64,000 nt of DNA from an uncultured Planctomycetia bacterium (lineage in GTDB: Bacteria > Omnitrophota > Gorgyraeia > 1-14-0-20-64-10), in contig CAYJVR010000001.1 of assembly GCA_964373715.1 (NCBI GenBank), forward strand, positions 333,888-397,887, written 5' to 3'. Below, piece after piece: positions 1 through 49,330 of the stretch (positions are counted from its first letter, which is position 1; each line of letters begins with the position of its first letter). Under the pieces are notes generated by a model. It worked only from the letters and a program-made list of their open reading frames with translations, had not been told where the DNA came from and ran no database searches. Made by a program: the position numbers and the translations under genes.

Positions 1-451
1 TCCCGAGCGCGGCGATCTTACTCCAGAGCGGAGCGTCGTTGTAGTCCCAGGAGCTGAGCTTGTACGCCTCGAGCCCGAGTTTCTCCGCCCAGAGGATGCC
101 GGTCGGCGAATTCACGGTGGAGAAGAGGATCACCCCTTTCTTGTCGGCGTAGATTTTGATCTCCTGCCACTGCTCGAAGCTGAACCGGAGCCGGCTGAGC
201 ATCTTGTACATGTTCTCGGACTTGGGGCCGTCCACCGTCTCGTAATTGTAGACGACCGTCTTGTCACTCATGATCTCGTCCGGGAACCAGAAGATCAGTT
301 TGATCGCGTCGGCCCCCGCTTCCCGGACCGCGTCAATCAGCTCCTTCGTGATCGTCATGTCGTAGTTGCAGGTGACGCCGCATTCGGCCATCACGAACAG
401 GGGCCTTTCCTCCCCGATCACCCTGTCCCGTATCGTGATCTGGGGCCTCAT
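1..451 (-). CDS. N-acetylneuraminate/pseudaminate synthase family (NeuB/PseI-like), N-terminal part; C-terminus runs off the window
   Basis: The reverse-strand translation from the ATG at 451..449 reads MRPQITIRDRVIGEERPLFVMAECGVTCNYDMTITKELIDAVREAGADAIKLIFW..., a typical NeuB N-terminal TIM-barrel core. The ATG overlaps the stop of the upstream gene (ATGA). Confidence 0.7.
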   Translation of the reverse strand, partial: MRPQITIRDRVIGEERPLFVMAECGVTCNYDMTITKELIDAVREAGADAIKLIFWFPDEIMSDKTVVYNYETVDGPKSENMYKMLSRLRFSFEQWQEIKIYADKKGVILFSTVNSPTGILWAEKLGLEAYKLSSWDYNDAPLWSKIAALG

Positions 452-2163
452 CGTTTCTTCTCCACACTTACGGGGACAGGGTCGTACTGCACGAGGAAAT
501 CCCCGACCGCCAGGTACGGCAGCTGGCTGGCCTCGAACGCCCTCAGAGCGTCCTCCGCGGTGCAGACGATCGGCTCCTCGTGCATGTTGTAGCTGGTGTT
601 GATCACGGAGGCCCTGCCGGTCAGTTCGCGGTACTCGGTCAGTATCCGGTGGAATTCCGGGTTATCTTCCCGGGAGACCACCTGCGGTCTCGCGGTCCCG
701 TCAATGTGGATGGCGGCCGGAGCCTCCTGCATCATCAGCAGGGTGCAGGCGAACGTGGTGGTCATGTGGTGGGCCGGCAGTCTCGCTTTGGAGTAGCCGA
801 TGTACCGTTCTTCCGCGTGTTCAGCCAGCGTCGCAGGCGCGAAGGGCATGAACTCAGAGCGGTTGAGCCTCTTGTTCAGCCAGTCGTTAATCCCCGGCTC
901 CGTTGCCTGGCACAGGATGCTCCGGTTCCCCAGCGCGCGGGGGCCGAACTCCATTTTCCCGTCGAACCGGGCGACGATTTCCCCGTCGGCCAGGAGTTGC
1001 GCGATTTTCTGCTCGATCCGGTCCGGCATGTATTTGTATCGGAACCCGCCGCGCGCCAGAAGCCGTGAGATTTCCGCTTCGGTCTCCTCCGGTCCGAGGT
1101 AGAGGGTGGTGAGCGGGTCCGGCCTTGTCCCGGTTTTTTCAACGTGCGCAAGCCAGGCGGCCCCCACCGCGAGGCCGCCGTCCCCCATGTTAGGGAAAAC
1201 GAACAGCTCCCGGACGTTGGGAAGCTCACAGAGACGCTGGTTCAGCTTCACGTTGGCGAAGATGCCTCCGGCGACGGCGAGCTTCCCTCCGAACTCCCCG
1301 AGGTCGGCCGCCAGCGCGCAGACCACCTCTTCCAGCGTCTTCTGCGCGGAGGAAGCGATGTCCTCCCGGCTGAATTCCCGAACGAATGCTTTCAGCTCCG
1401 GGTTCTCGAACCTGGGCACGTACATCCCGTTTTCCATCCGGGAAACGAACCGTTTCTCTTGAGGGTCGTAATCCACCATTGCCCGGATGTTCGGATAGGA
1501 TTTCGGGTTCCGCACATGGGCCGCGAGACCGAGCACCTTCCCTTCGTGCCGGTGCGGCATGAATCCGAGGGATTTTGTGATGCTGCCGTAGAAATAGCCG
1601 AGCGAATCAATCGTGCTGGACCGGTTGATGAAGTTCATCTTTCCGCGCGAGCATTCCCAGAGAGAGGAGGATCCGTCCTCCCCCCACCCGTCTGCGGTCA
1701 GTACCATGCACTCCGCCCAGCCTGAGCCGTAATAGGCGGATGCCGCGTGCGATTCGTGGTGGCCGAAGACCATCACCGGCCTGCCGAGGGATCGGATCTC
1801 CTCCAGGTATTTCGGGGTCCGGGTGCCGAGCACCATCCGCTCATGTTCGAGCCTTGATCGCAGATGGCCTATCTGCATCTGCTTCTTTTCGGGGGAGAGG
1901 GAGGAGTTCAGGATCGCCTCCTCCGCTTCCTGGAACGGTTTCGGGTCCGGGGACTCCGGCGCTGCCCCGTGCGTGGCCACCAGGTCAATCTGGTCGAGCG
2001 TCAGGCCGGCCATCTCCAGCACCTTCCGGATAGAGGCCTGCGGGACCCCGTTCCAGAGCTTCACCCGGTTGAGCCGTTCTTCGCTTACCGCGCAGAGCAG
2101 TTTGCCGTTGGCGATGATGCAGGCCGACGCGTCGGCCAGAAAAGAGATCCCGAGAATTTTCAT
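448..2163 (-). CDS. NodU/CmcH-family O-carbamoyltransferase
   Basis: 571 aa. The N-terminus MKILGISFLADASACII...GKLLCAVSEERLNRVK and the overall architecture match the NodU/CmcH (HypF-like) carbamoyltransferase family. Confidence 0.75.
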   Translation of the reverse strand: MKILGISFLADASACIIANGKLLCAVSEERLNRVKLWNGVPQASIRKVLEMAGLTLDQIDLVATHGAAPESPDPKPFQEAEEAILNSSLSPEKKQMQIGHLRSRLEHERMVLGTRTPKYLEEIRSLGRPVMVFGHHESHAASAYYGSGWAECMVLTADGWGEDGSSSLWECSRGKMNFINRSSTIDSLGYFYGSITKSLGFMPHRHEGKVLGLAAHVRNPKSYPNIRAMVDYDPQEKRFVSRMENGMYVPRFENPELKAFVREFSREDIASSAQKTLEEVVCALAADLGEFGGKLAVAGGIFANVKLNQRLCELPNVRELFVFPNMGDGGLAVGAAWLAHVEKTGTRPDPLTTLYLGPEETEAEISRLLARGGFRYKYMPDRIEQKIAQLLADGEIVARFDGKMEFGPRALGNRSILCQATEPGINDWLNKRLNRSEFMPFAPATLAEHAEERYIGYSKARLPAHHMTTTFACTLLMMQEAPAAIHIDGTARPQVVSREDNPEFHRILTEYRELTGRASVINTSYNMHEEPIVCTAEDALRAFEASQLPYLAVGDFLVQYDPVPVSVEKKR

Positions 2164-3083
2164 GGTATTTCCACCGTTTGCCTCAGCGCGTGGAACGCGC
2201 GGAGTCCATCAATGAGGTTGGGTAGCGGCCGGCACAGGACCCTCTGCGCTTTGGCGACCGACAAGGTGACGTTGAGCGGCCGCTTGACCTTAAGTTTGGC
2301 GGCGTGGTTCTCCACCGGTACCACCAGGTTTTCCGGGTAGCCGAACAGGGAGGCCAGCTGCCTGGCGAATTCGTACTTTGAGCAGCCCTCCGATCCGGCC
2401 AGGTGCAGCACGCCGGCGGAATCCCCTTCCGCCACGTCGAGCAGAAGCTGCGCCAGGTGGTTCGAGGAGATCGGTGAAAAAAAGAGGTCCACGAATCCTT
2501 TAAAGGGTTTCCCCTCTTGGAGAGAGTTAAGGATCCACTCCGCGAGGCTGTTGTTGTCGGGCAGAATATTCCACCCGTAAAAGGCGGTCCGGATGATCGA
2601 AGCGTCCGGGCGGCTCTTTAGGATAGCTCTTTCTGCTTCGAGTTTTGTCCTGCCGTACATGTGCAGAGGTGCCGTTGGGTCCCCTTCGCAGTAATTTCCC
2701 TTTTTTCCATCGAATACGGAGTCGGTCGAGATGAAGATGAAGCGGCACCTCCGGCCGGCGAGCGCCTTGAGCAGATGGACTGTGCTTCCAACGTTGACGG
2801 CGGCGGCCGCCTCAGGTTCGGATTCGCAGCGGTCAACCGAGGTGATCGCCGCCGCGTGAATCAGGATGTCGGGCCGGAACGTTTCGATCAGCGAGAAGAC
2901 GGCGGCGGGATCCGACACGTCGGCCGCCAGCGTGTCGCACGGTACGGAGGCCTTTTCCGGGTGCCTGGCCACTCCGAGCGTCAGGTGCTCTCTCAAGGAG
3001 GCTTCACGCGCCAGCGCGCTGCCCAGCAAACCGGTGATGCCGGTGACGAGGAGTTTTTTACGGTGCGGAGCCGTGACGCTCAT
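2160..3083 (-). CDS. NAD(P)-dependent sugar reductase, RmlD substrate-binding type (dTDP-4-dehydrorhamnose reductase-like)
   Basis: 307 aa. Carries the N-terminal Rossmann motif LLVTGITGLLGSAL, the YGRTK catalytic motif and an RmlD-like C-terminal half. It overlaps the neighbouring gene by 4 nt. Confidence 0.6.
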   Translation of the reverse strand: MSVTAPHRKKLLVTGITGLLGSALAREASLREHLTLGVARHPEKASVPCDTLAADVSDPAAVFSLIETFRPDILIHAAAITSVDRCESEPEAAAAVNVGSTVHLLKALAGRRCRFIFISTDSVFDGKKGNYCEGDPTAPLHMYGRTKLEAERAILKSRPDASIIRTAFYGWNILPDNNSLAEWILNSLQEGKPFKGFVDLFFSPISSNHLAQLLLDVAEGDSAGVLHLAGSEGCSKYEFARQLASLFGYPENLVVPVENHAAKLKVKRPLNVTLSVAKAQRVLCRPLPNLIDGLRAFHALRQTVEIP

Positions 3084-4114
3084 CCTGTTCTCGCCTCCTG
3101 CTCGGGCTTAAGAAAGGGGGCCAGCCGGACGGACAACCGTTCCGTGCCCCGTCCGTCCACGAGCCGCCGGCCGGCCGATCCGAGTGCGGCCCGTTCCCAG
3201 GAGTTTTTGGAGAGGCGGAGGATCGTTTCGTTCAACCGGCCGGTAAAATCTTCGGCGTCCGGTTTGCCCAGATTGATGAGACAGCCCGCTTCTTCCAGTC
3301 CCTGGAGATTCACGGACTGGTTTTCCGCCATCAGGAGGCCTATGGCCGGGGTGGCTGTGGCCGCCAGTTCATAGCAGGTCTGGCCTCCCGCGCTGATGGC
3401 CAGATCGGCCGCCAGCATAAGAGAGCGCAGATTTTCCGGGTCGGTATAAAGGGAGACCCTTTCGGGCGGAATATTTCCGGTGAAAGGGTTTTCCCCGAGA
3501 GGGCCTGAGATGAGGTCAATCCGGATTTCTGGAAAAGCGCGGAGAACTCCTCCGGCCAGCCGGGAAGCTAGCGCACTCCCGTTGCCTCCTCCGGTCATCA
3601 GCAGAAGACGGCGTACGGGGCCGGAAGGTTCCCGCCGGTCCGGCGCGGCGGCGAACACGGCTCTGAGCAGTATAAAGTCGGGGCCGAGCAGGAAAAGGGT
3701 GTCCGGCTTTCCTCTATACGTGAGTTTCTGGGCTCCGGCGGATCCGTTGGAGACCATTTCCACCGGAAAGAGGCCTCTTTCCCCGGTGTCATCCAGGCAG
3801 AGAGTGGGCGTTCGGCGTGAGAGTTGGCTCATCCGGTCGGAGCCGATTTCCGGGTCGTCGAGAATGCAGAGAGAGGTTTCCGGTCCCGCGTTCAGCAGCT
3901 GGATTGTCGCCTCCAGTCCGAGAGAATCAGGTTCTGTTTCTGATTCAAACCCGGCTTTCCTGAGAATGGCGGAGGCTTCGGCGCCGAAGACGGCGAACCG
4001 GACAACCGTTCCCTTCCCTCTGAGGTGGTCGGCCAGCGTCCAGCACCGGCGCAGATGCCCGAAACCGACAGCCGGACTTCCGGCTGTCCGGATCACAACG
4101 GCCGGCCCTTTCAT
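3080..4114 (-). CDS. PseG-like UDP-sugar hydrolase (GT28 C-terminal-domain family; pseudaminic acid pathway)
   Basis: 344 aa. VVIRTAGSPAVGFGHLRRCWTLADHL matches the PseG/SpsG signature (GxGHxxRC) and the fold is two-domain GT-B-like. Confidence 0.55.
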   Translation of the reverse strand: MKGPAVVIRTAGSPAVGFGHLRRCWTLADHLRGKGTVVRFAVFGAEASAILRKAGFESETEPDSLGLEATIQLLNAGPETSLCILDDPEIGSDRMSQLSRRTPTLCLDDTGERGLFPVEMVSNGSAGAQKLTYRGKPDTLFLLGPDFILLRAVFAAAPDRREPSGPVRRLLLMTGGGNGSALASRLAGGVLRAFPEIRIDLISGPLGENPFTGNIPPERVSLYTDPENLRSLMLAADLAISAGGQTCYELAATATPAIGLLMAENQSVNLQGLEEAGCLINLGKPDAEDFTGRLNETILRLSKNSWERAALGSAGRRLVDGRGTERLSVRLAPFLKPEQEARTG

Positions 4115-4764
4115 GAGAGGGCCCTCTGTCCGGTTGTTTCGGCGAAATCGGGAAGAACCGCCCGGATGTGGGCTCCGTTCTGTTCGATCACGAGGATTTT
4201 TTCCTTGGGGATTTCGAATTCCCGCAGGCGATTATGGAGTGTTTCCCAGTCCTTGTGGAGAGAGCTGATGATGCCGCAGTCGAAAGAGAGGCCGTTTAGT
4301 TTTTCCATCGGGATTACCGGCAGTCCCAGAAAAGTTTCTCCAGCGGCGGCGTCATCCACGAGGCAAATAAGCTGGAGGCCCGCTTCTTTCACGGAGAGGT
4401 AGGTGATTTCAGCCAGTTCCCCCCGTCCGAAAAAGAGGATATTTTTCCCGCCCTTTTGCGCCACTTTCCCGAGCGTTTCTTTCAGTATCTGGCGCACCGA
4501 CCGGTAGAGATGGAGCGAGTATTCCAGATATTCGTGGGTAAGCCGGGTTTTTTCCGCAACCCCCTTCGGAGTCAAGAGATAGTGAATACGGTTTTTTTGG
4601 GCGTTGACAATCTTCAGATACCCCTTATTAACGCACCGGCGGATCATGAGGTTGGTCAAACCGAGAGCCACCCCCATTTTTTTGGAGAGGTGTCTCTGCG
4701 TGGGGGAAGAGTCGTTCGTCAGCTCTTCCAGGACTTTCAGCTCGCGGTAAGATTCGGTTTTCAT
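4111..4764 (-). CDS. Transcriptional regulator: N-terminal winged HTH plus C-terminal Rossmann-like ligand-binding domain (Rex-like/NeuD-N-like)
   Basis: 217 aa. The N-terminal half is wHTH-like (…LSKKMGVALGLTNLMIRRCVNKGYLKI…HYLLTPKGV…). The C-terminal half reads NILFFGRGELAEI…LICLVDD…GLPVIPMEKL, which resembles the Rex NAD-binding domain or the PglD/NeuD N-domain but has a degenerate GxGxxA motif. Confidence 0.5.
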   Translation of the reverse strand: MKTESYRELKVLEELTNDSSPTQRHLSKKMGVALGLTNLMIRRCVNKGYLKIVNAQKNRIHYLLTPKGVAEKTRLTHEYLEYSLHLYRSVRQILKETLGKVAQKGGKNILFFGRGELAEITYLSVKEAGLQLICLVDDAAAGETFLGLPVIPMEKLNGLSFDCGIISSLHKDWETLHNRLREFEIPKEKILVIEQNGAHIRAVLPDFAETTGQRALS

Positions 4765-4808
4765 TCGAAAGGGCTGATTTTTGGGTAAAAGGACGGCACC
4801 TCTATCAT

Positions 4809-4823
4809 GTTCATTTCATGAAC
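4809..4823. promoter_or_regulatory. Perfect 6-bp inverted repeat GTTCAT-TTC-ATGAAC in the 94-bp spacer upstream of the wHTH regulator gene; candidate operator
   Basis: Read directly: gttcatttcatgaac at 4809-4823. It lies in an AT-richer spacer between the regulator start at 4764 and the 3' end of the GT2 pseudogene at 4859. Confidence 0.35.
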
Positions 4824-4858
4824 GTACAATGTCTGCCGCCCGGTGTCAAGGATGAAAA

Positions 4859-5373
4859 TTATCGGAAAAAGCGCTGAAGCCAGTCTTTGAAGGCGTAATT
4901 GAGGATGGCAAATCCGTAACGGACCGAGGGCACTTTCGAACTGGCGTTCGGGTTATAGTAAGTGCCCGCCGGGACCTCCACGATTTTCAGTCCCGCCCGG
5001 TGGCAGGCCACGATGAACTCGGTGTCAAACAGGTACCAATTTCCGATCTGCTCGAAGGGAACCTTTTTCAGAGCCTCTTTGGAGATTGCGCGGAATCCGC
5101 TGTGGAAATCCATAAAGTTCATCCCAAGCAGGAGGTTCTGGATTGATGAAGGTTTTTTTGCGCCCCGCCGTACCCTTTGTTCTGGGCATGGCGGAGCAGA
5201 ATCGTGCGAGGGAGGGAGGTAACGATCTCCGTGGTATTGTCAGAACTGCCGTCATCCAGTACTGCGATTTCATCCACCGGAGGGCACGGGATCTGCGAAA
5301 GAACCTCCCGGATGGTCCGGGAGGCGTTATACGCGGGGATGAGGGCCAGAACCTTCGGCGGTCCGTTCGGCAC
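4859..5373 (-). pseudogene. Decayed GT2 (DPM1-like polyprenyl-phosphate sugar synthase) paralogue, frameshifted and internally deleted
   Basis: Two adjacent ORFs in different frames. 5119..5373 encodes the GT2 N-terminus VLALIPAYNASRTIREV…VLDDGSSDNT…NKGYGGAQK. 4859..5122 encodes the GT2 C-terminus …FHSGFRAISKEAL…. Both align to the intact GT2 at 10527..11318. About 60 aa, including the DxD region, are missing between GYGG and SGFR. Confidence 0.65.
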
Positions 5374-5769
5374 TTAAGGGTCGGAGAATGTGTCCGGGTC
5401 CCGGGGGTCGAATGCTTCGGACACGTAGGCCACGACAAAAGACTCCTCCGGTCCCAGGGTTGTGAACGTATGCGAGGTTCCGGGAGGGACGAAGATCTTC
5501 TGAGCCGAGGTGTTTCCGTCAATGAGATATTCCTCTGTTTGTCCGGAGGAGAGGTCCTTGAGGATTATTTTGACCTTTCCCTTGAGCACGCAGAACCACT
5601 CCGATTTTCTCTTGTGGTAATGATGTCCTCGGACAGTGCCCGGTCTGGAATGGAATCCGTAGACGAGCCCTTTCGGCAGTTCCCGGCAGAAGATCTCCGT
5701 GAGCCAGCCGCGTTCGTCTGTTTTTCGTTCGATAGGCGAGAGTTTTTCGTTTGCCGGTGCCGGCGGCAT
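5374..5769 (-). CDS. Small cupin, WxcM/FdtA-like sugar 3,4-ketoisomerase family
   Basis: The probable start is M at 5769..5767 (MPPAPANEKLSPIERKTDERGWLTEIF…GTVRGHHYHK…FCVLKGK), which overlaps the PseB-like stop by 1 nt. The longer ORF-track form would overlap the upstream gene by 100 nt. Confidence 0.5.
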   Translation of the reverse strand: MPPAPANEKLSPIERKTDERGWLTEIFCRELPKGLVYGFHSRPGTVRGHHYHKRKSEWFCVLKGKVKIILKDLSSGQTEEYLIDGNTSAQKIFVPPGTSHTFTTLGPEESFVVAYVSEAFDPRDPDTFSDP

Positions 5770-6884
5770 CAGCTCAGCCCAAGCCACCGGTTTGCCGAAT
5801 AGATGTGCCGCAGCTGATCTTTGCTGAGCCGGCTGAGATACGGAGACGACGTGCGATCGGCATCGAGCCATCCCTCGGCCCGAAGCAGATGGGTGAAGTC
5901 GTCCGAGGAGAATCGCTTCGCGTTCTCAGAAGAGTACTCATCCGGTATGCCGCACCGATAGCTCTTGTACCGGGCGAGCAGCTTCGGGATCTCGACGAGC
6001 GGTAGGATAACGAAGAACTCTCCGATGTCAATCGAGCGTGTGGCTTCGTTCCGGGAGATGAGGAGCTCGTGGAGCTTCTCACCGGGCCGGATTCCGATCT
6101 TTTTTATCTCGATGGGTTTGCCCGGATTCAGATTTCGGCTCATCAGTTTCGCCAGATCCGATATCCGGATCGACTTCATTTTCAGGACGGCCGTTTCCCC
6201 TCCCAGGGCGATTGATTCCGCCTGAATGAGGGAGGCGATCGCCATACGCAGCGGGATGAAAAAGCGGGTCATCTCGGGGTCCGTGATGGTAATCTCTCCG
6301 AGCCGGAGGATTTGCTCCCTGAAGAGGGGGATGACGCTCCCGCTTGTCCCGATGACGTTGCCCGCCCTGTAGCAGGAAAACACGGTCGGCGCCAGGTTGT
6401 TCGCCGCCACAATCAGTTTTTCCGCGGCTAGCTTTGTGACGCCGTAAAGGTTCAGCGGGTCCACCCCTTTATCGCTGGAGACGTAGATGACCTTGTCCAC
6501 GCGGCAGCGGATGGTGGCGTTGATGACGTTCTGTGTTCCCGCGACGTTGGTCATCACCGTTTCCCAGGGGTTTTCCTCGCAGACGGGAACGTGTTTCAGC
6601 GCGGCGAGGTGAAAAACAAGATTTACTCCGCTCATTGCCAGGTCCAGCCGGGTATGGTCCCGCACATCTCCGATGATATAGCGCAGTGCCGGATGGTTTT
6701 CAAACCGGCGCTTCGATATCACCTGCTGGGTTTCGCCACGGCTGTAGATCCGGATTTCGGCCGGCCGGTGAGGAAGGATCTGGGAAACCAGCTCGGTGCC
6801 CCATGAGCCGGTTCCGCCGGTGATCAGGATGGTTTTTCCCCTGTACCTGGAGAGGGGCCGGTTTCCGTTTCTAGAATGTCTCAT
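5769..6884 (-). CDS. UDP-GlcNAc 4,6-dehydratase, PseB/FlaA1/CapD family
   Basis: 371 aa. Motifs TILITGGTGSWGTEL…LYGVTKLAAEKL match the polysaccharide biosynthesis protein CapD/PseB family. Confidence 0.65.
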   Translation of the reverse strand: MRHSRNGNRPLSRYRGKTILITGGTGSWGTELVSQILPHRPAEIRIYSRGETQQVISKRRFENHPALRYIIGDVRDHTRLDLAMSGVNLVFHLAALKHVPVCEENPWETVMTNVAGTQNVINATIRCRVDKVIYVSSDKGVDPLNLYGVTKLAAEKLIVAANNLAPTVFSCYRAGNVIGTSGSVIPLFREQILRLGEITITDPEMTRFFIPLRMAIASLIQAESIALGGETAVLKMKSIRISDLAKLMSRNLNPGKPIEIKKIGIRPGEKLHELLISRNEATRSIDIGEFFVILPLVEIPKLLARYKSYRCGIPDEYSSENAKRFSSDDFTHLLRAEGWLDADRTSSPYLSRLSKDQLRHIYSANRWLGLS

Positions 6885-6890
6885 GGTTTT

Positions 6891-13583: not shown

Positions 13584-13620
13584 GGGATATGTCCGGGAAA
13601 CCGGCGAAGCACTTCCTCCG

Positions 13621-19196: not shown

Positions 19197-20489
19197 TCAA
19201 GTTTTCGGGGCCAGCTCGGAACCGGCTGGCTGCCAGTCCCAGGAATGGGGCACGGCCACGCTTCCCCATGAGTTTCCGGATGGGAGAACCAAGAGACCGC
19301 TGGAGCCGTCGTCAATCACCGAGAACTGACCCGCTCTAGAAATCTGATCGGCAACCCCCTCCAGGCCCCGGTCTGTTTTCAGCGCGGCGGTAACCCAGTA
19401 CTTGCCGGGCAATAGAGGCAAGCTTTTGACGCGGCAGACAATCTGCCCTTTTGGCGCGATGTCTCGGAACGATCTAAGCTGGGACATCGCTGTTGTGCAG
19501 GAAAACACGTTGACGCCGCTGATATCCGTTATGCCAATCATCGCGATCAAGTGGGGGATCGAAACGTTTTCTCGGGCTTTATAACCGATGATGAACTCCG
19601 CTTGGTTACATGACCTGAGAAGCCCCGCTTCACCCCCCGGACCGGCCGCTTCAAAACTTGTCACGCGGACGTCTCCCGCTCCGATACGATCCTTCCGATC
19701 GGCCAGACAGCAGGCGCCGGGCATCATCTGTTCTTCGGCGTATTGTGTGTAAGCTTGTATGACCTCGTCCGGTTTCCCGATCGTGTGGATTCTGCCGCTT
19801 TGGAGCATCATTGCTTTGGAGCAGAACGATCGTACGGCGCTCATATTATGGCTGACGAAAAGGACCGTTCGGCCGCCCGAAGCGACTTCATCCATCTTAT
19901 TCAAACATTTTTCCTGGAACGCCATGTCTCCTACGGCAAGCACCTCGTCAATCAGGAAAATCTCCGGTTCCAAGTGCGCGGCGATTGCAAACGCCAGGCG
20001 GACCTGCATGCCGCTCGAGTAGCGCTTCATCGGAGTATCGATGAACATGCTGACGCCTGAAAAATCTACAATCTCATCGAACTTTCTGTTGATCTCGCGG
20101 CGGTTCATTCCCAAGATAGCGCCGGAAAGGTAAACATTGTCCCTGCCTGAGAGCTCGGGATGAAAACCTGTGCCGACCTCCAAAAGAGAGCCGACGCGGC
20201 CTCGGATAGAAACTTGCCCCTCGGTCGGCTCGGTGATTCTGGAAAGGATCTTCAGAAGTGTGGATTTTCCGGTGCCGTTTGTGCCGATGATACCCAGCAC
20301 CTCCCCCTTCTTCACATCGAACGTCACATCTCTCAGTGCCCAAATTCTCTGATCCACCGATTTGCCATTCCTCCGAAAGAATCCTGTCACGCCTTCGGAA
20401 ACGGTATCCCGGAGTGACTTGTACCTTTCCCGCGAGCCTATCCGGTATTGTTTGCCGAGCCCTTCGGATCGAATGACGATATCGCTCAT
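19197..20489 (-). CDS. wzt: Polysaccharide ABC exporter ATP-binding protein (Wzt/TagH family) with ~180-aa C-terminal extension (putative carbohydrate-binding domain)
   Basis: Start at MSDIVIRSEGLGKQY. Walker A GTNGTGKST, signature YSSGMQVRLAFA, Walker B/D-loop LIDEVLAVGD. The roughly 180 residues after the NBD are non-ABC, like the O-antigen-terminus-binding domain of Wzt. Confidence 0.75.
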   Translation of the reverse strand: MSDIVIRSEGLGKQYRIGSRERYKSLRDTVSEGVTGFFRRNGKSVDQRIWALRDVTFDVKKGEVLGIIGTNGTGKSTLLKILSRITEPTEGQVSIRGRVGSLLEVGTGFHPELSGRDNVYLSGAILGMNRREINRKFDEIVDFSGVSMFIDTPMKRYSSGMQVRLAFAIAAHLEPEIFLIDEVLAVGDMAFQEKCLNKMDEVASGGRTVLFVSHNMSAVRSFCSKAMMLQSGRIHTIGKPDEVIQAYTQYAEEQMMPGACCLADRKDRIGAGDVRVTSFEAAGPGGEAGLLRSCNQAEFIIGYKARENVSIPHLIAMIGITDISGVNVFSCTTAMSQLRSFRDIAPKGQIVCRVKSLPLLPGKYWVTAALKTDRGLEGVADQISRAGQFSVIDDGSSGLLVLPSGNSWGSVAVPHSWDWQPAGSELAPKT

Positions 20490-22228
20490 CGAGGCCCTCC
20501 GCCTGCAGAAAGCGATACAGAGGAGATCGCAGCGTCTTCGGCCAAACGGCAACGGGTTTCCGGCTCACTGCAGAGATAATCGGGCTCTGCGGACGATGCA
20601 GCCCACTCGGAAAAGGCGTTGAGATCCTCGGCCTTTAAGAGCTGATCGAAAGAGGTCAAGCACAGCTTGAAGTCGTGGGCGAGGGGGTTTCCGTCCAACG
20701 CGCGATAAAGGAGCTCGAAACTACGGAAACGCCAGGGGCGTACTTTAAAGAGCGTGTAAGCATGCCGCCTGGCCAAATCAATCTGCTCAGGCGTCATGGG
20801 GGGTATCCTGTCAATGGATCTGACCTTTGACAGATAGTCCTCCTGAGAGGCCGAATCAAACGTGAAACCGAGGCCTGCGTACCTGCCGGTGCCGGCCGTC
20901 AAGACAGGGATCCCGTGACACGGCATCTCGATGCCGATGGTCCCTCGGACGGTCAGACAGTAATCGGCTAATGAAAAAAGCGAATAGGTAGAGATTTTCG
21001 TCTCGGGCATCATGAGCTTGATGTGCCCGGGGAGTTTTCCGAAACGGGACCGAATCGCGGTGATATCGCTGACTTCCCCTGTCTTTCCTATCAATTTCAG
21101 CTTCCAGACATAGTCTGGGTGAATCTTGACTATCCAGTTGACCCGGGGATTGTCGGAGGCGGCCCGTACGGTCTCCAGGAGCCACTCTTCATAGCTGTCG
21201 AAAAGGCTTTCTCCGAAAAAGAAGGTGGCGTCCCAGAGCACATGGGAAAAGATGACCGCAGTTTTCTTGCCGCGGTCCAAACCGAGATCCGATGCAACCT
21301 CGCCGGGATCTTGGATCACCTTGTCATTCGTCGTGTATTTTCTGTCGAACCAGGTGCCGGACGCGTAGCGGTTTTTCAAATCATCTAAAATATCTTCGTT
21401 CCGCCCGGCAGGCCATGGGGCGGAACGGATGGCGTTCCATGTTTTCGGCGACACGGAAAACGGATGCAGGCTTTTCGTGTCTCTTGAATACCGCTTGAGT
21501 ATAAACGCTCCCTTGGATTGCGCTCCCACCCATTGAAGCGTGTCCACTCCCCTGGCAAGCGCACTATCGAAAATTTCCCCGTAGGGGGTATAGCCCCGCT
21601 CGTTGACTAAGACTTTTTGAGGATGAATGCGGTCGAACAGCTTTTCAGCCGCCAGCACCGCTTGAAGCGATTTAGGGAGCCATTCCGCCAGAAACGCAAC
21701 GACGGCTGGATTTTTCAGATTGACGGAGCCCACGAGCATGTTCCTGGTCAGCGTCGAGAGCAGGTGGCGGCCGACCTCCGAGCCTCTGTAAGACAGATGC
21801 ATGAGCGTTTTGAAATCCAGCGGTTCGCTGAGAATCCGGGCTGCATCTTGCGCAGCTTGCCGCGAGATGGCGCCGTCTACCAGATCCTCCATGAAGATAA
21901 ACCGGCGGATGCCGAATGAGCGGAAATACTGCGGCGCGTACCGGCAGGCCCTGTACGTCAAAATCACGGGCGAAAATCCCTTCAATTGCAGGGATTTTGC
22001 GAGCAACCCTTCGATCTTGTTCTGCTGTGGAAAATCAGCAAGGCTGACGACAAGCACGCTGCCGTCTTTTTCCATGGAAACGTCTGGGCCGAGGACAGCT
22101 CGGTGCCTGTAGCTGAACGACCAGCAGTCCGACTGCAATCTCCAAGCCTGATTGAACCGGCGGGGATCCCTCACAGCCTCCGTCAATTTTCTAGCAAGAC
22201 TCCGGTTTTTGAAATAGGATGTTTTCAT
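20486..22228 (-). CDS. KpsS/KpsC-like Capsule_synth-domain protein (retaining beta-Kdo-transferase-like glycosyltransferase family)
   Basis: 580 aa. The C-terminal half …WIVKIHPDYVWKLK…LADYCLTVRGTIGIEMPCHGIPVLTAGTGRYAG follows the KpsS pattern (…VIKHHP…AKAVVTINSTAGISALIHNKPLKVMGNALY). Assigned from recalled family motifs only. Confidence 0.45.
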   Translation of the reverse strand: MKTSYFKNRSLARKLTEAVRDPRRFNQAWRLQSDCWSFSYRHRAVLGPDVSMEKDGSVLVVSLADFPQQNKIEGLLAKSLQLKGFSPVILTYRACRYAPQYFRSFGIRRFIFMEDLVDGAISRQAAQDAARILSEPLDFKTLMHLSYRGSEVGRHLLSTLTRNMLVGSVNLKNPAVVAFLAEWLPKSLQAVLAAEKLFDRIHPQKVLVNERGYTPYGEIFDSALARGVDTLQWVGAQSKGAFILKRYSRDTKSLHPFSVSPKTWNAIRSAPWPAGRNEDILDDLKNRYASGTWFDRKYTTNDKVIQDPGEVASDLGLDRGKKTAVIFSHVLWDATFFFGESLFDSYEEWLLETVRAASDNPRVNWIVKIHPDYVWKLKLIGKTGEVSDITAIRSRFGKLPGHIKLMMPETKISTYSLFSLADYCLTVRGTIGIEMPCHGIPVLTAGTGRYAGLGFTFDSASQEDYLSKVRSIDRIPPMTPEQIDLARRHAYTLFKVRPWRFRSFELLYRALDGNPLAHDFKLCLTSFDQLLKAEDLNAFSEWAASSAEPDYLCSEPETRCRLAEDAAISSVSLSAGGGPR

Positions 22229-22905
22229 CTTTTTTCTAGGAGCGCCTCGGCGATCTTAAGGTCGGCCATCGAATCAATATCCACAGATTCGAGCGGCTCC
22301 ATGATGAGAGGAACACACCTGGATCCATACAGCCCTTTTTCTTCTAAAACCAACCGCCAGACGGCGAGGACGGCAGGGCCGTTGCGCGCATACCGGGCCG
22401 GTTTATCCTGCCGCTGGAGTGCCGTTCTCTTGCCCGGAAGCGGCAGAAGCCGTCCGTTCTTGATCTCCATTTGGCAAGGTGCTAGGAACTGGTGCGGAAC
22501 CGGGATGACGCTTACCACGGAGTCGGCCTTGCTGTCGATCAGCAGTCGGACAGCCGAATCAATGTGGCTTGCCTTCCTCAGAGGTGACGTGGGCTGGAGC
22601 AGCACCACAACGTCAGGTCGTGCGCTGGAAACGGCCTTCACTGCGTGCCGGAGTACGGCCAGCATAGGCGTGCCATCTGCGGCCAGCTTCGCGGGGCGCA
22701 GGAACGGGACCTCCACGCCGTGCCGCTGAGCGCAGGAGGCGATCTCCTTGCTGTCCGTGCTGACGATAACACGGGTAAGGCTTTTGGCAGAAAGCGCCTG
22801 TTCGCATGTGTGAACCAGAAGGGGTTTACCCGCCAATGGAATGAGATTCTTGTTCGGAATTCCCTTCGATCCGCCGCGAGCCGGGATGACGCCCAGGACC
22901 TTCAT
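22225..22905 (-). CDS. CMP-nonulosonic acid synthetase (NeuA/PseF/LegF acylneuraminate cytidylyltransferase family)
   Basis: Start at MKVLGVIPARGGSKGIPNKNL. IPARGGSKGIP-NKN is the NeuA/PseF signature, in contrast to KdsB IPARxxSxRLPGK. Confidence 0.75.
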   Translation of the reverse strand: MKVLGVIPARGGSKGIPNKNLIPLAGKPLLVHTCEQALSAKSLTRVIVSTDSKEIASCAQRHGVEVPFLRPAKLAADGTPMLAVLRHAVKAVSSARPDVVVLLQPTSPLRKASHIDSAVRLLIDSKADSVVSVIPVPHQFLAPCQMEIKNGRLLPLPGKRTALQRQDKPARYARNGPAVLAVWRLVLEEKGLYGSRCVPLIMEPLESVDIDSMADLKIAEALLEKR

Positions 22906-24014
22906 TGTTTTCTCCGGGACTTGCTCATGAGGATGTCCAGGAGGTAGTTCCGCCCTCGGCTGCCAACAAGGGCTAAACCAAGCGTTGTTGCCCCTAGGAT
23001 CCACTTCCTCCGTTTCAGATAAGGCAACGCCAGCTCCGCCAGCCCTTTTTCCCTCTGGTAAGGATCGGAGAGGAGCGCGGAACCAAGCGCTCGATGGAAA
23101 CAGCGATCTGCTTCCGGCCGGTTCCCGAGCTTGCGGTAAGCCTCCGCGGCCATGAAGAAAAGGCGGTGTCTATTCCCCCGGTTGCTGGCGCTGAGCAATT
23201 CTGCCGTCACTTCATTGAGGATCTTATCCGCCTCCTCCGGCTCGCCGCACTCCATGGCCTGCCGGATCCGTACCGCGGGGCCAACATCCTCTCTCGGGAA
23301 CCTGCCGTCGATGGGAGGATGGTCCAGTGTTGGAGGCAGAGCAAAAAATACGGCATTGGAACGGATATTCCTCCGCTCCGCGAAGTTTTTGCGGGCTGAG
23401 ACAACCGCCGGGTTTGCTTCAGCCGAACCAACGAGGGAAATATCCAACCTCTGCTGCGCAGCCCATGCGAGAAACTCTCTGGCTTCCGATGAAGCCTCTT
23501 GTTCATCGACAAAGGAGATGTCCTGAAGGAACACATGGCCGTTGATTCGGGGAAACAGCTTCTCGATGTACCATTGAGCGAAGAAATCCTCGTGACAGCT
23601 GTCCAGCAGGACAAAGTTCACCCTGCCGGGCACCTGCTCCGTCGTATGGCGAGCGTCGCCTAAATGCAGAACCAAGCGATTTTGATCCCATTCCCTGCAT
23701 TGGTTTCCGCGGATGACCAACTCTGAGGATTTGCAACCGATTCGCTTTTTGAGCTCAAAAGAATGGAGAGTTCCCGTCCCGTTGGCTGTCAGAGCGGCCA
23801 AGATATAATTTGTTGACCAACCGGTATCCGGAGAGATCTCAAAAACCACCTTGGGCTGCGATTCCCTTAAGGTCAGGTAAAGGATCTCTCCTTCCACGTC
23901 CCCAAAGGTGGTGTTGTAGCCGCGTTTCCGCATGGCATGATATTGCTCGCGAAGCTTTCTAGAAAGCGACAGCAGCTCTGGAGCGTATTTTCGGTAAAGG
24001 CTCTCTACCTGCAT
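22902..24014 (-). CDS. Class I SAM-dependent methyltransferase (TylF/O-MT family 3-like) with TPR-like C-terminal extension and a C-terminal hydrophobic helix
   Basis: 370 aa. Motif I VVFEISPDTGWST, then TLHSFEL and FVLLDS. The C-terminus …AEAYRKLGNRPEADRCFHRAL… is TPR-like and ends in the hydrophobic segment WILGATTLGLALVGS. Confidence 0.5.
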   Translation of the reverse strand: MQVESLYRKYAPELLSLSRKLREQYHAMRKRGYNTTFGDVEGEILYLTLRESQPKVVFEISPDTGWSTNYILAALTANGTGTLHSFELKKRIGCKSSELVIRGNQCREWDQNRLVLHLGDARHTTEQVPGRVNFVLLDSCHEDFFAQWYIEKLFPRINGHVFLQDISFVDEQEASSEAREFLAWAAQQRLDISLVGSAEANPAVVSARKNFAERRNIRSNAVFFALPPTLDHPPIDGRFPREDVGPAVRIRQAMECGEPEEADKILNEVTAELLSASNRGNRHRLFFMAAEAYRKLGNRPEADRCFHRALGSALLSDPYQREKGLAELALPYLKRRKWILGATTLGLALVGSRGRNYLLDILMSKSRRKQ

Positions 24015-25165
24015 CAGTAATTGATCTTTTTTTGAATAACCGGGTTAGAGGTGGCTAAAATTTCGGAGATCTGTATACCCGCCCGTCCGTCCCCGTAAAT
24101 CGGCTCGGAGGCTCGCCGACGGTTGCGTATCTGCGCTTGAATGGCAGCGGTGATCTCGTCCTGGCTGTATCCGACGTCTATGACGTTCGAACCGCGCTGC
24201 CGCCCTTGCTGGCGTGTTCCGATATTGACCGCCGGAAGACCCAAGAAAGCTCCCTCCCGAATTGCGGCGCTTGAGTTTCCTACAATACAGCTGGTCTTTG
24301 TCATTAATTTGATGTACGTTTCGAACGGTATGTGTTTGAAGAAGTGCATTTTCGAAGCGTTTTGGTGCTCCCGAAATTTTCGGATCCCCTGAGCCACATG
24401 CTCGGAGCCGGCGTCCGCGTTGGGCCAGAGAATGATGGCAGGATAGCCGCACTGGGAGACGGCAGAAAGGGTCTCCGTGATATGCTGCTCCCCTTTCCCG
24501 TACTCGGTGGTCACGGGGTGCTGGGAGACGATGACGAACGGTTCCTCCAAATTGAATTTTTCGCCGACCCCTTCGTGGAACAGTTCTGCACTCAAAACGT
24601 CAATACTTTGCTTCTGTATCTCGGCAACCAGGTCGATTCTGGGGCAGCCTACCATGTGGACCGTCTCAGGCCTCTCCCCCATCCGGATAATCCGCTCGGC
24701 GGCCTCCGAGCAGGCGGGAAAATGGATATGGGCAAATTTGGTGACGGCATGCCGGATTGACTCGTCGATCGTCCCGGAGATTTCCCCTCCCATGGTGTGC
24801 GCTAAGGGGATGTTCATGTACGCGGCCGCCAGCGTTGTCGCCATCGTCTCAAAGCGGTCCCCAACAGTGAGCACAATGTCAGGCTTTAACTGCTCGAAGA
24901 CGGTCGGCAGTTCCAGCAGACCCAGGCCGGTCGATTTTGCCATCGTGGTCGGGGTTTCCCCCTCGACCAGCATGTGGACCCGGGCGGCCGGCTTAAAACC
25001 GTCTTTCTCGATCAGATTGACCACCGATCCGTAACGGTCCAGCAGCGCGGAGGCGCAGACCACCACCTGCAGTTGAAGGTCGGAACGGGCCTGGATCGCG
25101 CGCATCGCGCTCTTGATGCTGCTGTAATTCGCACGGGAGCCGACGACCACCGTAATCTTACGCAT
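24014..25165 (-). CDS. UDP-N-acetylglucosamine 2-epimerase (hydrolysing), NeuC/LegG-like
   Basis: Start at MRKITVVVGSRANYSSIKS. …HTMGGEISGTIDESIRHAVTKFAHIHFP…GNSSAAIREG… resembles the NeuC family. The upstream 46 codons of the ORF track are a Cys/Arg-rich artefact. Confidence 0.7.
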   Translation of the reverse strand: MRKITVVVGSRANYSSIKSAMRAIQARSDLQLQVVVCASALLDRYGSVVNLIEKDGFKPAARVHMLVEGETPTTMAKSTGLGLLELPTVFEQLKPDIVLTVGDRFETMATTLAAAYMNIPLAHTMGGEISGTIDESIRHAVTKFAHIHFPACSEAAERIIRMGERPETVHMVGCPRIDLVAEIQKQSIDVLSAELFHEGVGEKFNLEEPFVIVSQHPVTTEYGKGEQHITETLSAVSQCGYPAIILWPNADAGSEHVAQGIRKFREHQNASKMHFFKHIPFETYIKLMTKTSCIVGNSSAAIREGAFLGLPAVNIGTRQQGRQRGSNVIDVGYSQDEITAAIQAQIRNRRRASEPIYGDGRAGIQISEILATSNPVIQKKINY

Positions 25166-26198
25166 GCCGGCGCTCCTTTGTTTTGTGCAAGCCGCTGTGT
25201 TTCCCGTTCCGCAGGTCTTTCCAACGCAGCAGCGTATCGGCCTTGATCGTCCGCCCCGATTTTCTGCCGAGAACCAGAGGCAGTTCCGCTGCAGGAATTC
25301 CACTGCCGGGCTTCTTCACATCGAGCATCTCGGCAGTCAGCGTCGTCCCTTCTGCGACATTGACTCGCGTCACCAAAGACTTCTGAAATATCTGCTTCAT
25401 CGCGCGGTACCGGCCGATCTTGTTCTTGTCGACCGGAGACCCTAGCATCGTCTCAATCGCGCGGATGCCCCTGATCATCTCGGCGAATTCGGCCGGCTCG
25501 AGCGAATGCTTCGCATCGCTGCCGTACATTTTCCGGCTCAGCGTAAAGTGCTTCTCAATCGTTTCGGCGCCCAGCATTGCGGCGGCAAACGCCGCGTAGT
25601 TCGTCAGCGTATGGTCCGAGAGGCCGACCGGCAACCTGTAGCGCTCACGCATCTCCTGCAAAACGTTGAGCCCAACTCTTTCGTAGGGGCACGGGTACTC
25701 GGAGGTGCATTGGAGCACAGTGATCCGTTTCGTGCGCCGCCGGAGTGTTTCCACTGCCTGGTCCAGCTCGGCCCAGGAGTTCATGCCGGAGGAGAGCAGA
25801 ATCGGTTTGCGGGTCGCAACGATCCGCTTGAGCAGAGGAATGTTCGTGACCTCGCCGGAAGGAATCTTGTACCGTTTGACCCCCAACTGCTCGAGCAGCA
25901 CGACCGCTTTCAGCGAGAACGGAGAGCAGAGAAACTCCACGCCTAGCCTTTCGCAGAACGATTTCAAGGTGCGCCATTCGTCCAGAGTAAAGGCGGTTCG
26001 ACGGAAATAGTCGTAGCGGGATTCCTGGGTGAAGTAAGGGGGATTCGGAGCGTTGCGCAGCGTTTCTGCCTCTGCGATGTGCATCTGGAATTTGACCGCA
26101 TCGGCCCCGCAATCGGCAGCCGCCTCAATCAACCGCTGCGCGTTCCCGAAGGATCCGTCGTGAACCGATCCTATCTCGGCAATAACGAAGATTTTCAC
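25158..26198 (-). CDS. Nonulosonic acid synthase (NeuB/LegI/PseI family) with C-terminal SAF domain, second paralogue
   Basis: …KIFVIAEIGSVHDGSFGNAQRLIEAAADCGADAVKFQ…LSSGMNSWAELDQAVE…, then the SAF domain …LVTRVNVAEGTTLTAEMLDVKKPGSGI. Start proposed at the GTG at 26198 (VKIFVIAEIG). The ATG-started track ORF overlaps the upstream gene by 240 nt. Confidence 0.75.
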   Translation of the reverse strand: MKIFVIAEIGSVHDGSFGNAQRLIEAAADCGADAVKFQMHIAEAETLRNAPNPPYFTQESRYDYFRRTAFTLDEWRTLKSFCERLGVEFLCSPFSLKAVVLLEQLGVKRYKIPSGEVTNIPLLKRIVATRKPILLSSGMNSWAELDQAVETLRRRTKRITVLQCTSEYPCPYERVGLNVLQEMRERYRLPVGLSDHTLTNYAAFAAAMLGAETIEKHFTLSRKMYGSDAKHSLEPAEFAEMIRGIRAIETMLGSPVDKNKIGRYRAMKQIFQKSLVTRVNVAEGTTLTAEMLDVKKPGSGIPAAELPLVLGRKSGRTIKADTLLRWKDLRNGKHSGLHKTKERRHA

Positions 26199-28514: not shown

Positions 28515-29068
28515 AGCTTTAATTTTCCCTTCATCACCGCCAGAGCGACGATTCCCATATGGGGCGCGTGGTTGAATTTCCCGGAGGTAATCAGTTTTTT
28601 AAGCTCCCGGGGGCTGCATAAAACTATTTCGATCCCCGGCTCGATCTTCCGTCCCTCGGGCCGGTGCGGCAGAGCCTTCGGGGCGAAATAGCACCAGAGC
28701 ATGTTTTCCAGCCTGCCGGAATCGGGATGCAGTTGGGCCAGAAACTCCATCCGCCCCTTCGAAGAGAATCCTGTCTCTTCCCAGAGTTCCCGCTCCATCG
28801 CCGCGCGCGGCGTTTCCCCCGCCTCCACGCAGCCGCTGGGCAGCTCGTAGGTGTATTTTTCCAGTACGGGCCGGAACTGCTTGACCAGCACCACGTACCC
28901 CTCTTTCGTCAGCGCGAGTGCCGAACAGTACTCGAGCGACTTCACTGAAAAGTAGGTTTCCGACCCTTTCTTCCAGGGGTAGATGACCTCTTTCTCCATC
29001 ACCTTGAACCAGGGAGATGAATAAGAGACCTTTTTGCGGACAATCTTCGGGTGTTTCGCGGAGCTCAT
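28511..29068 (-). CDS. NUDIX hydrolase
   Basis: 185 aa. Nudix box GCVEAGETPRAAMERELWEETG. Confidence 0.75.
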   Translation of the reverse strand: MSSAKHPKIVRKKVSYSSPWFKVMEKEVIYPWKKGSETYFSVKSLEYCSALALTKEGYVVLVKQFRPVLEKYTYELPSGCVEAGETPRAAMERELWEETGFSSKGRMEFLAQLHPDSGRLENMLWCYFAPKALPHRPEGRKIEPGIEIVLCSPRELKKLITSGKFNHAPHMGIVALAVMKGKLKL

Positions 29069-30168: not shown

Positions 30169-30177
30169 CGTCTTGGT

Positions 30178-49329: not shown

Positions 49330-49330
49330 G

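Follow-up and report, generated by a model that had tools for sequence, protein, structure and literature searches.

A conserved NeuB-family clade without the metal-ligand histidines in a putative variant pseudaminic acid module of an Omnitrophota polysaccharide locus

We analyzed a 64-kb stretch of DNA from an uncultured bacterium of the Omnitrophota (contig CAYJVR010000001.1, positions 333,888 to 397,887; hereafter the window), which is dominated along its whole length by a run of minus-strand genes and which carries genes for nonulosonic acids (NulOs). The protein of most interest is NeuB1, whose gene is cut by the start of the window. By its fold, NeuB1 belongs to the NeuB family, and it lacks both of the metal-ligand histidines of the characterized enzymes to which we compared it. 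Judging from its sequence, it belongs to a third, non-canonical clade of the family and is not the pseudaminic acid (Pse) synthase. For the locus as a whole, we think the following explanation is probably right, with considerable room for doubt: the genes around neuB1 (module A) are the 3' end of an O-antigen-type locus of about 45 kb that depends on a Wzm/Wzt ABC transporter, and this locus has two NulO modules and three NeuB-family proteins, with NeuB1 embedded in module A as part of a variant Pse pathway.

The sequence beyond the edge of the window comes from a public metagenome contig of 20.8 kb (L001), which we found by looking up the sequence of the carbamoyltransferase encoded next to neuB1. 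The first 12,163 bases of L001 are the reverse complement of positions 1-12163 of the window, with 0 mismatches, and L001 runs 6.8 kb past the start of the window. The gene order past the edge is NeuB1, a CMP-transferase (CMPt1) whose gene overlaps the 3' end of neuB1, a GFO-family oxidoreductase, a GNAT-family protein, a class-III aminotransferase, PseI, and WbuX, after which the contig ends. This also supplies the missing 3' end of the first NeuB gene, whose full-length product has 347 amino acids. A BLAST comparison of the locus proteins to every open reading frame (ORF) in the window found exactly two NeuB homologues (NeuB1 and NeuB2), one CMP-transferase (CMPt2), and one NeuC. A first-pass annotation of the window had counted two synthases and a single CMP-transferase. 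Those counts are right for the window, but the window and L001 together have three NeuB-family synthase genes and two CMP-transferases. The suggestion of a hybrid pathway, which was drawn from the single CMP-transferase, fails because the second CMP-transferase is just outside of the window; it was an artefact of the window's edge. Counts of NeuB copies in a truncated window misassign pathways.

In the first-pass annotation, NeuB1 was the Pse-type synthase and NeuB2 was the legionaminic- or neuraminic-type (Leg- or Neu-type) synthase, with one shared CMP-transferase or a hybrid pathway. The genes for PseB-like and PseG-like proteins and NeuB1 are adjacent and co-oriented, NeuB1 scores almost equally against the NeuB and PseI models, and its orthologues are found in Pse operons, all of which speaks for that reading. 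We now consider it very improbable. A canonical PseI (480 bits) and the second CMP-transferase are encoded just outside of the window, and NeuB1 lies outside the clade of PseI from Campylobacter jejuni (CjPseI) and lacks H215, H236, D247, E134, and Y186 (residues are numbered as in NeuB from Neisseria meningitidis, or NmNeuB). Both PseI and NeuB2 keep E25, K53, Q55, K129, S132, E134, S154, Y186, S213, H215, E234, H236, and D247, and from its sequence we take the downstream PseI to be a bona fide Pse synthase. Other parts of the first-pass annotation stand. The genes that it named all lie on the minus strand, at the positions it gave; the two NeuB copies in the window are distinct (25% identical, in different clades, and with different active-site residues); and the presence of both Pse-type and Neu/Leg-type routes supports more than one NulO. 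Given the gene content, two or three NulOs from this locus are plausible.

Full-length NeuB1 (L001 11713-12756) has a TIM barrel (PF03102) and a C-terminal SAF domain (PF08666), as do its homologues, and it scores under both of the NCBIfam equivalog cutoffs (200.5 bits for NeuB, with a cutoff of 399.65, and 176.7 bits for PseI, with a cutoff of 340.25). We aligned it to NmNeuB (PDB entry 1xuu), CjPseI (8h2c), and SpsE from Bacillus subtilis (1vli). NeuB1 retains E25, K53, K129, S132, S213, E234, and R314 of the SAF domain, which we take to be catalytic residues of NmNeuB or to bind phosphoenolpyruvate (PEP) or the substrate. Relative to NmNeuB, it has the changes Q55I, F112N, E134D, S154D, Y186H, H215R, and H236R, and it has HHH instead of P246-D247-I248. 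In NmNeuB, H215 and H236 coordinate the metal (Mn2+) (PMC11339185), and E25, E134, E234, and R314 are catalytic or PEP/substrate-binding positions (PMC8208679). The residues Asp136, Asp156, His187, and His246-248 make up a new Asp/His cluster that is fixed in the clade.

These changes form a fixed pattern across the NeuB1 clade (NeuB1 and 30 orthologues). Position 215 may be R, K, A, S, T, E, D, N, P, or V, but is never His. At position 236, 30 of the 31 proteins have Arg, and L028 has Lys. E134D, S154D, Y186H, and HHH at 246-248 are shared by all members except one or two: L028 has Leu-Asp-His at 246-248, and position 186 is ambiguous in L023. Position 55 is nearly invariant as well, with I or M instead of Q. 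The signature is kept even in orthologues that are only 41-44% identical. Among the retained residues, the exceptions are Trp at 314 in L033 and a truncated ORF without position 25 in L034. H236 and D247 are canonical in all of the partner PseI proteins and all NeuB2-family proteins, and so is H215 except in the PseI from L023. A further active-site variant is seen in partners from Phycisphaerales and Syntrophobacteraceae loci (L032 12467-13435, L033 12721-13791, and L035 12416-13792), where the PseI-like proteins keep H215 but have Tyr or Phe for the catalytic E134 and Thr for F112; the full-length ones (L033 and L035) also keep H236 and D247.

In a neighbor-joining tree, the NeuB1 clade has bootstrap support of 99/100, the PseI proteins with CjPseI have 98/100, and the NeuB2 family has 100/100. 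The AlphaFold model of NeuB1 (pLDDT 92.5) is most similar to 1xuu, 2wqp, and 8h2c, with TM scores of 0.82-0.84, and DAHP and KDO8P synthases come next.

The clade is widespread. A search of 5.8 billion protein sequences gave 864 matches to NeuB1, and the best 120 of these are nearly all about 347 amino acids long, are 59-82% identical to NeuB1, and have generic names only. When 50%-identity representatives were searched exhaustively, about 30 of the best 150 had the signature, down to about 30% identity to NeuB1, and the others had the canonical H/H/D. The representatives in this search also include other variants of the family, such as H215/T236/E247 with D154 (the type of P0281, P0296, P0371, and P0395) and Q215/R236/G247 with D25 (the type of P0270, P0325, and P0374). 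A scan of GTDB, with one genome per species, found 32 NeuB1-related loci, all of them in metagenome-assembled genomes (MAGs). The hosts are Omnitrophota (with the closest relative, at 82% identity), Methylomirabilota/Rokubacteria, Nitrospiraceae, several deltaproteobacterial groups, Acidobacteriota, Ignavibacteriales, Planctomycetota, and lineages of the candidate phyla radiation (CPR). Across 72,556 plasmids, which we scanned in order to reach cultured hosts, there was no NeuB1-type gene, and the best matches there were canonical proteins of the PseI/RkpQ type (about 31% identical). In these searches, the core NeuB1 group was seen only in MAGs.

Most of the NeuB1 loci encode PseB, a DegT-type PseC, NeuB1, a CMP-transferase, PseG, and PseI, often followed by WbuX, HisH, and HisF. 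NeuB1 is thus an accessory in complete Pse pathways, and is typically paired with a single local CMP-transferase. In L017, which is from a Syntrophobacterales MAG, PseB (495 bits), PseC (474 bits), PseG (235 bits), and PseI (490 bits) are all above their equivalog cutoffs, and the CMP-transferase after NeuB1 is under its cutoff (172 bits vs. 206). The PseG of L017 (11769-13412) is fused to a formyltransferase domain and no PseH acetyltransferase follows, which implies that this pathway makes a putative N-formylated Pse. Stand-alone formyltransferase ORFs are present in L007, L020, L030, L033, and L035. We considered a formyltransferase as the universal partner that would explain the second synthase, and rejected this because only six loci have one. 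By analogy with L005 and L017 only, we would expect HisH and HisF to be encoded downstream of WbuX in our bacterium.

A minority of the loci, including ours, have a class-III aminotransferase. Among NeuB1 loci, this enzyme and the DegT-type PseC are mutually exclusive: L001, L005, L006, L011, L013, L021, and L031 have the class-III aminotransferase and all lack a DegT-type PseC. The GFO-family oxidoreductase accompanies the aminotransferase in five of the six other than L001, and in L011, and possibly L013, the aminotransferase appears to be fused to a GNAT domain. We infer that the class-III aminotransferase and the GNAT protein probably replace PseC and PseH in the lineage of the window, which would be a non-orthologous replacement. 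Literature searches on Pse clusters with aminomutase-like aminotransferases, on Pse in Omnitrophota, and on paralogues of PseI found nothing relevant.

We propose that module A (positions 6884-1, continuing for 6.8 kb past the start of the window; Table 1) is a variant Pse pathway that comprises the PseB-like protein, the PseG-family protein, the PseH-like GNAT, the class-III aminotransferase, the PseF-like CMPt1, PseI, and WbuX, and that its product would be of the Pse5Ac7Ac/Am type. The PseB-like protein has the active-site motif SSDK...NLYGVTK, which is of the Tyr type; we take this type to be typical of PseB and the Met type to be that of CapE. A phmmer search of the PDB with the PseG-like protein alone found no match, but a profile of eight sequences (the PseG-like protein and canonical PseGs) found C. 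jejuni PseG (3hbm) at 7e-35. The N-terminal G-x-G-H of the PseG-like protein includes His20, which is invariant in the profile alignment and is aligned with His17 of 3hbm, presumably the catalytic residue. The first-pass annotation would have been refuted if the ORF were a generic GT28-domain protein without the PseG active-site residues, and the aligned His speaks against this. Upstream of neuB1, the carbamoyltransferase, the RmlD-like reductase, and the divergent PseG are found together only in L005, L006, L036, and the window. The TGA of the carbamoyltransferase gene overlaps the ATG of neuB1 as ATGA, a coupling that had been noticed in the first pass and that we read directly from the sequence. 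Similarly, the start of the cupin gene overlaps the stop of the PseB-like gene (TGATG). The cupin resembles part of the reductases described by NF047837 (WbcJ/WbjC), whose substrate is named as UDP-2-acetamido-2,6-dideoxy-L-arabino-hex-4-ulose.

What does NeuB1 do? We lean slightly towards NeuB1 being an active PEP-condensing enzyme with a remodeled site that makes a second ulosonate. Its metal site would be relocated or dispensable, and its substrate would be a 6-deoxy-hexosamine derived from the Pse pathway. In this genome, the substrate might be 4-hydroxy-6-deoxy-L-HexNAc, formed from the product of the PseB-like protein by the cupin and the RmlD-like reductase. The side branch would then run from the PseB-like protein to the cupin and reductase, the PseG-like protein, NeuB1, O-carbamoylation, and CMPt1; NeuB1 is translationally coupled to the carbamoyltransferase upstream and to CMPt1 downstream. 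The product of the branch would be a 7-hydroxy-9-deoxy nonulosonate that is O-carbamoylated by the carbamoyltransferase. The substrate, the product, and the role of the carbamoyltransferase in this scheme are predictions from gene content. Carbamoylated or methylated NulO derivatives, which the first-pass annotation had hinted at, are a reasonable prediction from these genes, and our search of the literature found no link of carbamoylation with nonulosonic or pseudaminic acids. NeuB requires a divalent metal, and metal-independent KDO8P synthases exist (PMC12531865).

Alternatively, NeuB1 may no longer be a synthase. It might have been repurposed, for example for epimerization, for a retro-aldol reaction, or for modifying Pse or a keto-sugar intermediate, or it might pair with PseI without being catalytic itself (dimers of NeuB enzymes are domain-swapped). 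Both metal ligands and five more pocket residues are replaced, in a fixed pattern, and a canonical PseI and a single CMP-transferase are almost always alongside, which speaks for this alternative. Yet NeuB1 retains E25, K53, K129, S132, S213, E234, and R314, and the identity of 60-82% across phyla, together with the invariant polar residues in the pocket, argues for catalysis. Furthermore, in two loci from CPR bacteria (L028 and L031), NeuB1 is the sole NeuB homologue within 10 kb on each side and lies beside PseB and an aminotransferase, which mildly favors a real synthase. The tight coupling of neuB1 to the CMP-transferase also points to a free ulosonate as the product of NeuB1. Overall, we think it rather unlikely, but a possibility to be taken seriously, that NeuB1 is not a synthase.

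If NeuB1 is an active synthase, a bolder view is that its clade is a new mechanistic class of synthase, with a relocated or lost metal site, and that with its dedicated CMP-transferase it makes an undescribed ulosonic acid, which would be O-carbamoylated in our bacterium. The candidates would be a 7-hydroxy-9-deoxy or 7-amino NulO, or a C4 epimer of Pse. We offer this view tentatively and would sooner expect some part of it to be wrong.

Several observations count against our explanation. The NeuB1 clade has no characterized member, and with both metal ligands gone, synthase activity could equally have been lost. Most NeuB1 loci have two NeuB homologues and one CMP-transferase, which is odd if two activated NulOs are made. 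Just 3 of the 32 related loci have the reductase, the cupin, and the carbamoyltransferase, and since the reductase is absent from most of them, a 4-hydroxy substrate cannot be the general one for the clade. The PseB-like protein, the PseG-like protein, and both CMP-transferases are under their NCBIfam equivalog cutoffs. Module A has no DegT-type PseC, and it is solely the complementary distribution that points to the class-III aminotransferase as its substitute. Finally, for the second module, NeuB2 groups with NmNeuB in only 49/100 bootstraps, in a tree that has no LegI reference, which bears on the choice between Leg and Neu.

Module B (positions 26198-20486) encodes NeuB2, a canonical synthase of the NeuB/LegI type, in a gene that overlaps that of NeuC. 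Relatives of NeuB2 are found in Desulfonatronum thioautotrophicum (L037), in a MAG from the Anaerolineae (L038), in a groundwater contig (L039, 75% identical), and in L040. In all four loci, NeuB is accompanied by NeuC and a CMP-transferase, with no dehydratase or aminotransferase. L037 and L039 also have one or two methyltransferases, including one in the slot that matches the methyltransferase of module B, and in L039 a homologue of the 580-amino-acid ORF of module B directly follows the CMP-transferase. Because of this conserved synteny, we consider module B (NeuC, NeuB, methyltransferase, CMP-transferase, and glycosyltransferase) to be self-contained. L040 has a second set of genes at 8475-13098, encoding a GFO-family protein, a CTP_transf_3 protein, a NeuB without the SAF domain, a short-chain dehydrogenase, and a HAD/SIS protein, which suggests another type of ulosonic acid pathway as judged from its gene families.

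Most likely, module B would make a methylated NulO of the sialic or legionaminic type, with the methyltransferases in predicted roles. A Neu-type product seems to us to be slightly ahead of a Leg-type one. The names of NeuB2 homologues in source databases alternate between neuraminate synthase and legionaminate synthase, and so do not discriminate between the two. A Leg-type (5,7-diamino) product could arise by way of the short-chain dehydrogenase/reductase (SDR) at 27504-28514, the LegC-like aminotransferase at 30178-31326, and the hexapeptide acyltransferase at 32598-33341. The best NCBIfam match of the aminotransferase is to the LegC family (293 bits), the SDR is weakly similar to LegB (118 bits), a hexapeptide-repeat transferase is nearby, and all of these genes are co-oriented in one operon-like run. 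However, all three scores are far under their cutoffs, L037-L040 have NeuC, NeuB, and a CMP-transferase without the dehydratase or aminotransferase, and those genes could belong to one of the several unrelated deoxy-sugar pathways in this large locus. We consider a Leg-type product by this route to be somewhat unlikely. The set of SDR, NUDIX, FkbM, and aminotransferase genes (27504..31326) is absent from all four of the related loci, and it may feed module B, giving a Leg-type product, or may equally serve another sugar pathway.

The 580-amino-acid protein, whose ORF is ATGA-coupled to that of CMPt2, is a good candidate for the transferase that uses the CMP-ulosonate. In its predicted structure (pLDDT 86.6), the best target-normalized TM score was 0.49-0.55, to KpsC, with generic GT-B folds alongside. 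PF05159 is weakly matched by 20 of 25 homologues, and the match for the ORF in the window is not above the Pfam threshold. The family is large (1316 matches) and unannotated, and its members co-occur with NeuB2-family genes on the same contigs. What the Wzt_C domain recognizes in ABC-transporter polysaccharide systems is a terminal cap. Our proposal is that this KpsC-like enzyme adds the methylated NulO as the terminal residue that is read by Wzt_C, as with terminal beta-Kdo.

Table 1. Genes of the two NulO modules and of the transporter, in the window and on L001
Feature	Position	Strand	Matches
NeuB1, N-terminal 150 codons	1..451	-	PF03102 4e-17; NCBIfam NeuB 80 bits, PseI 53 bits
NodU/CmcH-type O-carbamoyltransferase	448..2163	-	PF16861 1e-55, PF02543 1e-32
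RmlD-like SDR, putative nucleotide-sugar 4-ketoreductase	2160..3083	-	TIGR01214 189 bits (cutoff 224), PF04321 3e-57
Divergent PseG-family UDP-sugar hydrolase	3080..4114	-	TIGR03590 119.1 bits (cutoff 153.55)
Winged-helix MarR_EPS-like putative regulator	4111..4764	-	TIGR04176 65.6 bits (cutoff 88), PF13412
GT2 glycosyltransferase pseudogene	4865..5367	-	tblastn with intact L005 orthologue
Cupin, like the C-terminal domain of WbjC/WbcJ-type UDP-4-keto-6-deoxy-HexNAc reductases	5374..5769	-	NF047837 positions 251-366 6e-17, PF14667 3e-23
PseB-like UDP-GlcNAc 4,6-dehydratase, Tyr-type	5769..6884	-	TIGR03589 309 bits (cutoff 407.75), FnlA 212, PF02719 3e-90
Wzt ABC-transporter ATPase with Wzt_C glycan-binding domain	19197..20552	-	PF00005, PF14524
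580-amino-acid GT-B protein, remotely KpsC/KpsS-like	20486..22228	-	PF05159 18.4 bits (cutoff 20)
CMPt2, CMP-NulO synthetase	22225..22905	-	PF02348 1e-28; PseF model (TIGR03584) 141.6 bits (cutoff 205.7)
Methyltransf_24-type methyltransferase with C-terminal helical extension	22902..24014	-	PF13578 7.5e-8
Hydrolyzing UDP-HexNAc 2-epimerase, NeuC/LegG type	24014..25165	-	TIGR03568 406.6 bits (cutoff 235.9)
NeuB2, canonical NeuB/LegI-type synthase with SAF	25158..26198	-	TIGR03569 359.8 bits (cutoff 399.65); PseI model 249
TylC3-like NDP-hexose C-methyltransferase	26219..27502	-	PF08421, PF13489, PF08484
SDR (weakly dehydratase/LegB-like), NUDIX hydrolase, FkbM methyltransferase, LegC-family-like DegT aminotransferase	27504..31326	-	
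Wzm ABC-2 permease	34483..35328	-	PF01061
CMPt1, CTP_transf_3	L001, outside window		PF02348; PseF model 182.7 bits (cutoff 205.7)
GFO/IDH/MocA oxidoreductase	within L001 13456-16433, outside window		
GNAT, PseH-like	within L001 13456-16433, outside window		57 bits
Class-III aminotransferase, glutamate-semialdehyde-aminomutase-like	within L001 13456-16433, outside window		PRK06209-like 400 bits
PseI	L001 16436-17539, ~4.7 kb beyond window start		TIGR03586 480.2 bits (cutoff 340.25)
WbuX N-acetyl-sugar amidotransferase	L001, outside window		352 bits (cutoff 203)

As a whole, the cluster is a polysaccharide locus that depends on an ABC transporter, and its product is most likely an O-antigen. Besides Wzm and Wzt, the cluster encodes several glycosyltransferases of families GT1, GT2, and GT4, Gmd (511 bits), Rml-type proteins, and three nucleotide-sugar dehydrogenases. 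A set of genes for a CDP-3,6-dideoxyhexose, at 11315-15888 on the minus strand, looks complete: it encodes a glucose-1-phosphate cytidylyltransferase (RfbF, 335 bits), a protein like CDP-glucose 4,6-dehydratase (226), RfbH (647), a small epimerase-like protein, and an SDR. Directly upstream of the glycan cluster (44847-50821, minus strand) are a 778-amino-acid ORF with a faint match to LptD_N, a kinase or regulator of the ROK family, and two GGDEF diguanylate cyclases, one of them with a GAF domain. Magnetospirillum gryphiswaldense has a C10 CMP-ulosonic acid that is unassigned (bioRxiv 10.64898/2026.04.20.719630). We also asked if the C-methyltransferase or NeuB1 could be linked to it, and set this aside, as the GTDB scan found no locus from Magnetospirillum.

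Near the PseB-like gene, a GT2 gene has decayed. Residues 3-77 of the intact orthologue match in frame -1 and residues 157-251 match in frame -3; residues 78-156 (about 80 codons) are deleted and there is a frameshift. An intact GT2 paralogue that is 39% identical to the pseudogene is at 10527-11318. The genes upstream of the PseB-like gene (6891-9523, minus strand) encode two polytopic membrane proteins, of which one is PMT_2-like; in the closest Omnitrophota relative (L005 2863-5606) these genes lie downstream of the GT2 gene. Comparing the two gene orders, the shift appears to be a local rearrangement beside the GT2 pseudogene. The public record of the identical contig also includes a plus-strand ORF of 218 amino acids (5146-5802), with no Pfam match, that is antisense to the cupin gene; this is probably a gene-calling error in high-GC sequence.

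NulOs decorate many microbial surfaces and shape their recognition by phages, immune systems, and lectins, and what is known of NulO diversity in environmental bacteria comes mostly from mass spectrometry; few of the genes have been assigned. Here, a conserved and phylogenetically broad clade of NeuB proteins sits inside otherwise canonical Pse operons and lacks the metal histidines that are kept in every other reference that we compared. If these proteins are active, they would add to the alpha-carboxyketose synthase superfamily a class with a new mechanism, comparable to the metal-independent KDO8P synthases, and a new sugar would probably follow. Generic labels such as "N-acetylneuraminate synthase" or "legionaminate synthase" are not justified for proteins in the NeuB1 clade.

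Loci for several NulOs are already known, as in Campylobacter. C. jejuni NCTC 11168 has three NeuB paralogues, namely its own NeuB1 (for Neu5Ac), NeuB2/LegI, and NeuB3/PseI. Our locus resembles that system in having three synthases that would feed Pse-, Leg-, and Neu-type pathways, and in its tailoring by an amidotransferase and methyltransferases. To our knowledge, each of the three in Campylobacter is a canonical, metal-dependent synthase, and CjPseI keeps H215, H236, and D247 in our alignment, whereas here one paralogue lacks all three residues. Also, our genes are in a Wzm/Wzt O-antigen locus instead of a flagellin glycosylation island. Compared to the canonical pathway of PseB, PseC, PseH, PseG, PseI, and PseF, module A has a PseI above the cutoff and PseB-like, PseG-like, PseH-like, and PseF-like proteins, but it has a class-III aminotransferase and a GFO-family protein in place of the DegT-type PseC, it has the extra NeuB1, carbamoyltransferase, RmlD-like reductase, and cupin, and several of its components are under their cutoffs.

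The PseB-family dehydratase, the cupin of the WbcJ/WbjC type, and the separate SDR recall the WbjB/WbjC systems (CapE/CapF or FnlA/FnlB) that form UDP-6-deoxy-L-HexNAc. Here, though, the dehydratase has the Tyr of PseB, the reductase and the cupin are split into two proteins, and where a 2-epimerase of the WecB type would follow, there are a PseG-type hydrolase and a NeuB homologue. In module B, the 580-amino-acid protein resembles the beta-Kdo transferases KpsC/KpsS and WbbB in that its GT-B fold is closest to KpsC and its gene is beside that of a CMP-ulosonate synthetase in a Wzm/Wzt_C locus. It is only about 14-17% identical to KpsC, and its predicted donor would be a CMP-nonulosonate and not CMP-Kdo.

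We know of no metal-independent class of NeuB, PseI, or LegI. The KDO8P synthases, which share the alpha-carboxyketose synthase superfamily with NeuB1, have both a metal-independent class (I) and a metal-dependent class (II), and they are a precedent for replacing the metal ligands while retaining the condensation of PEP with an aldehyde (PMC12531865). NeuB1 differs from them in that both of its His ligands are changed and a His/Asp cluster is gained, so its site may be relocated rather than lost. What is new relative to these systems is the NeuB1 clade and the apparent non-orthologous replacements within the Pse pathway.

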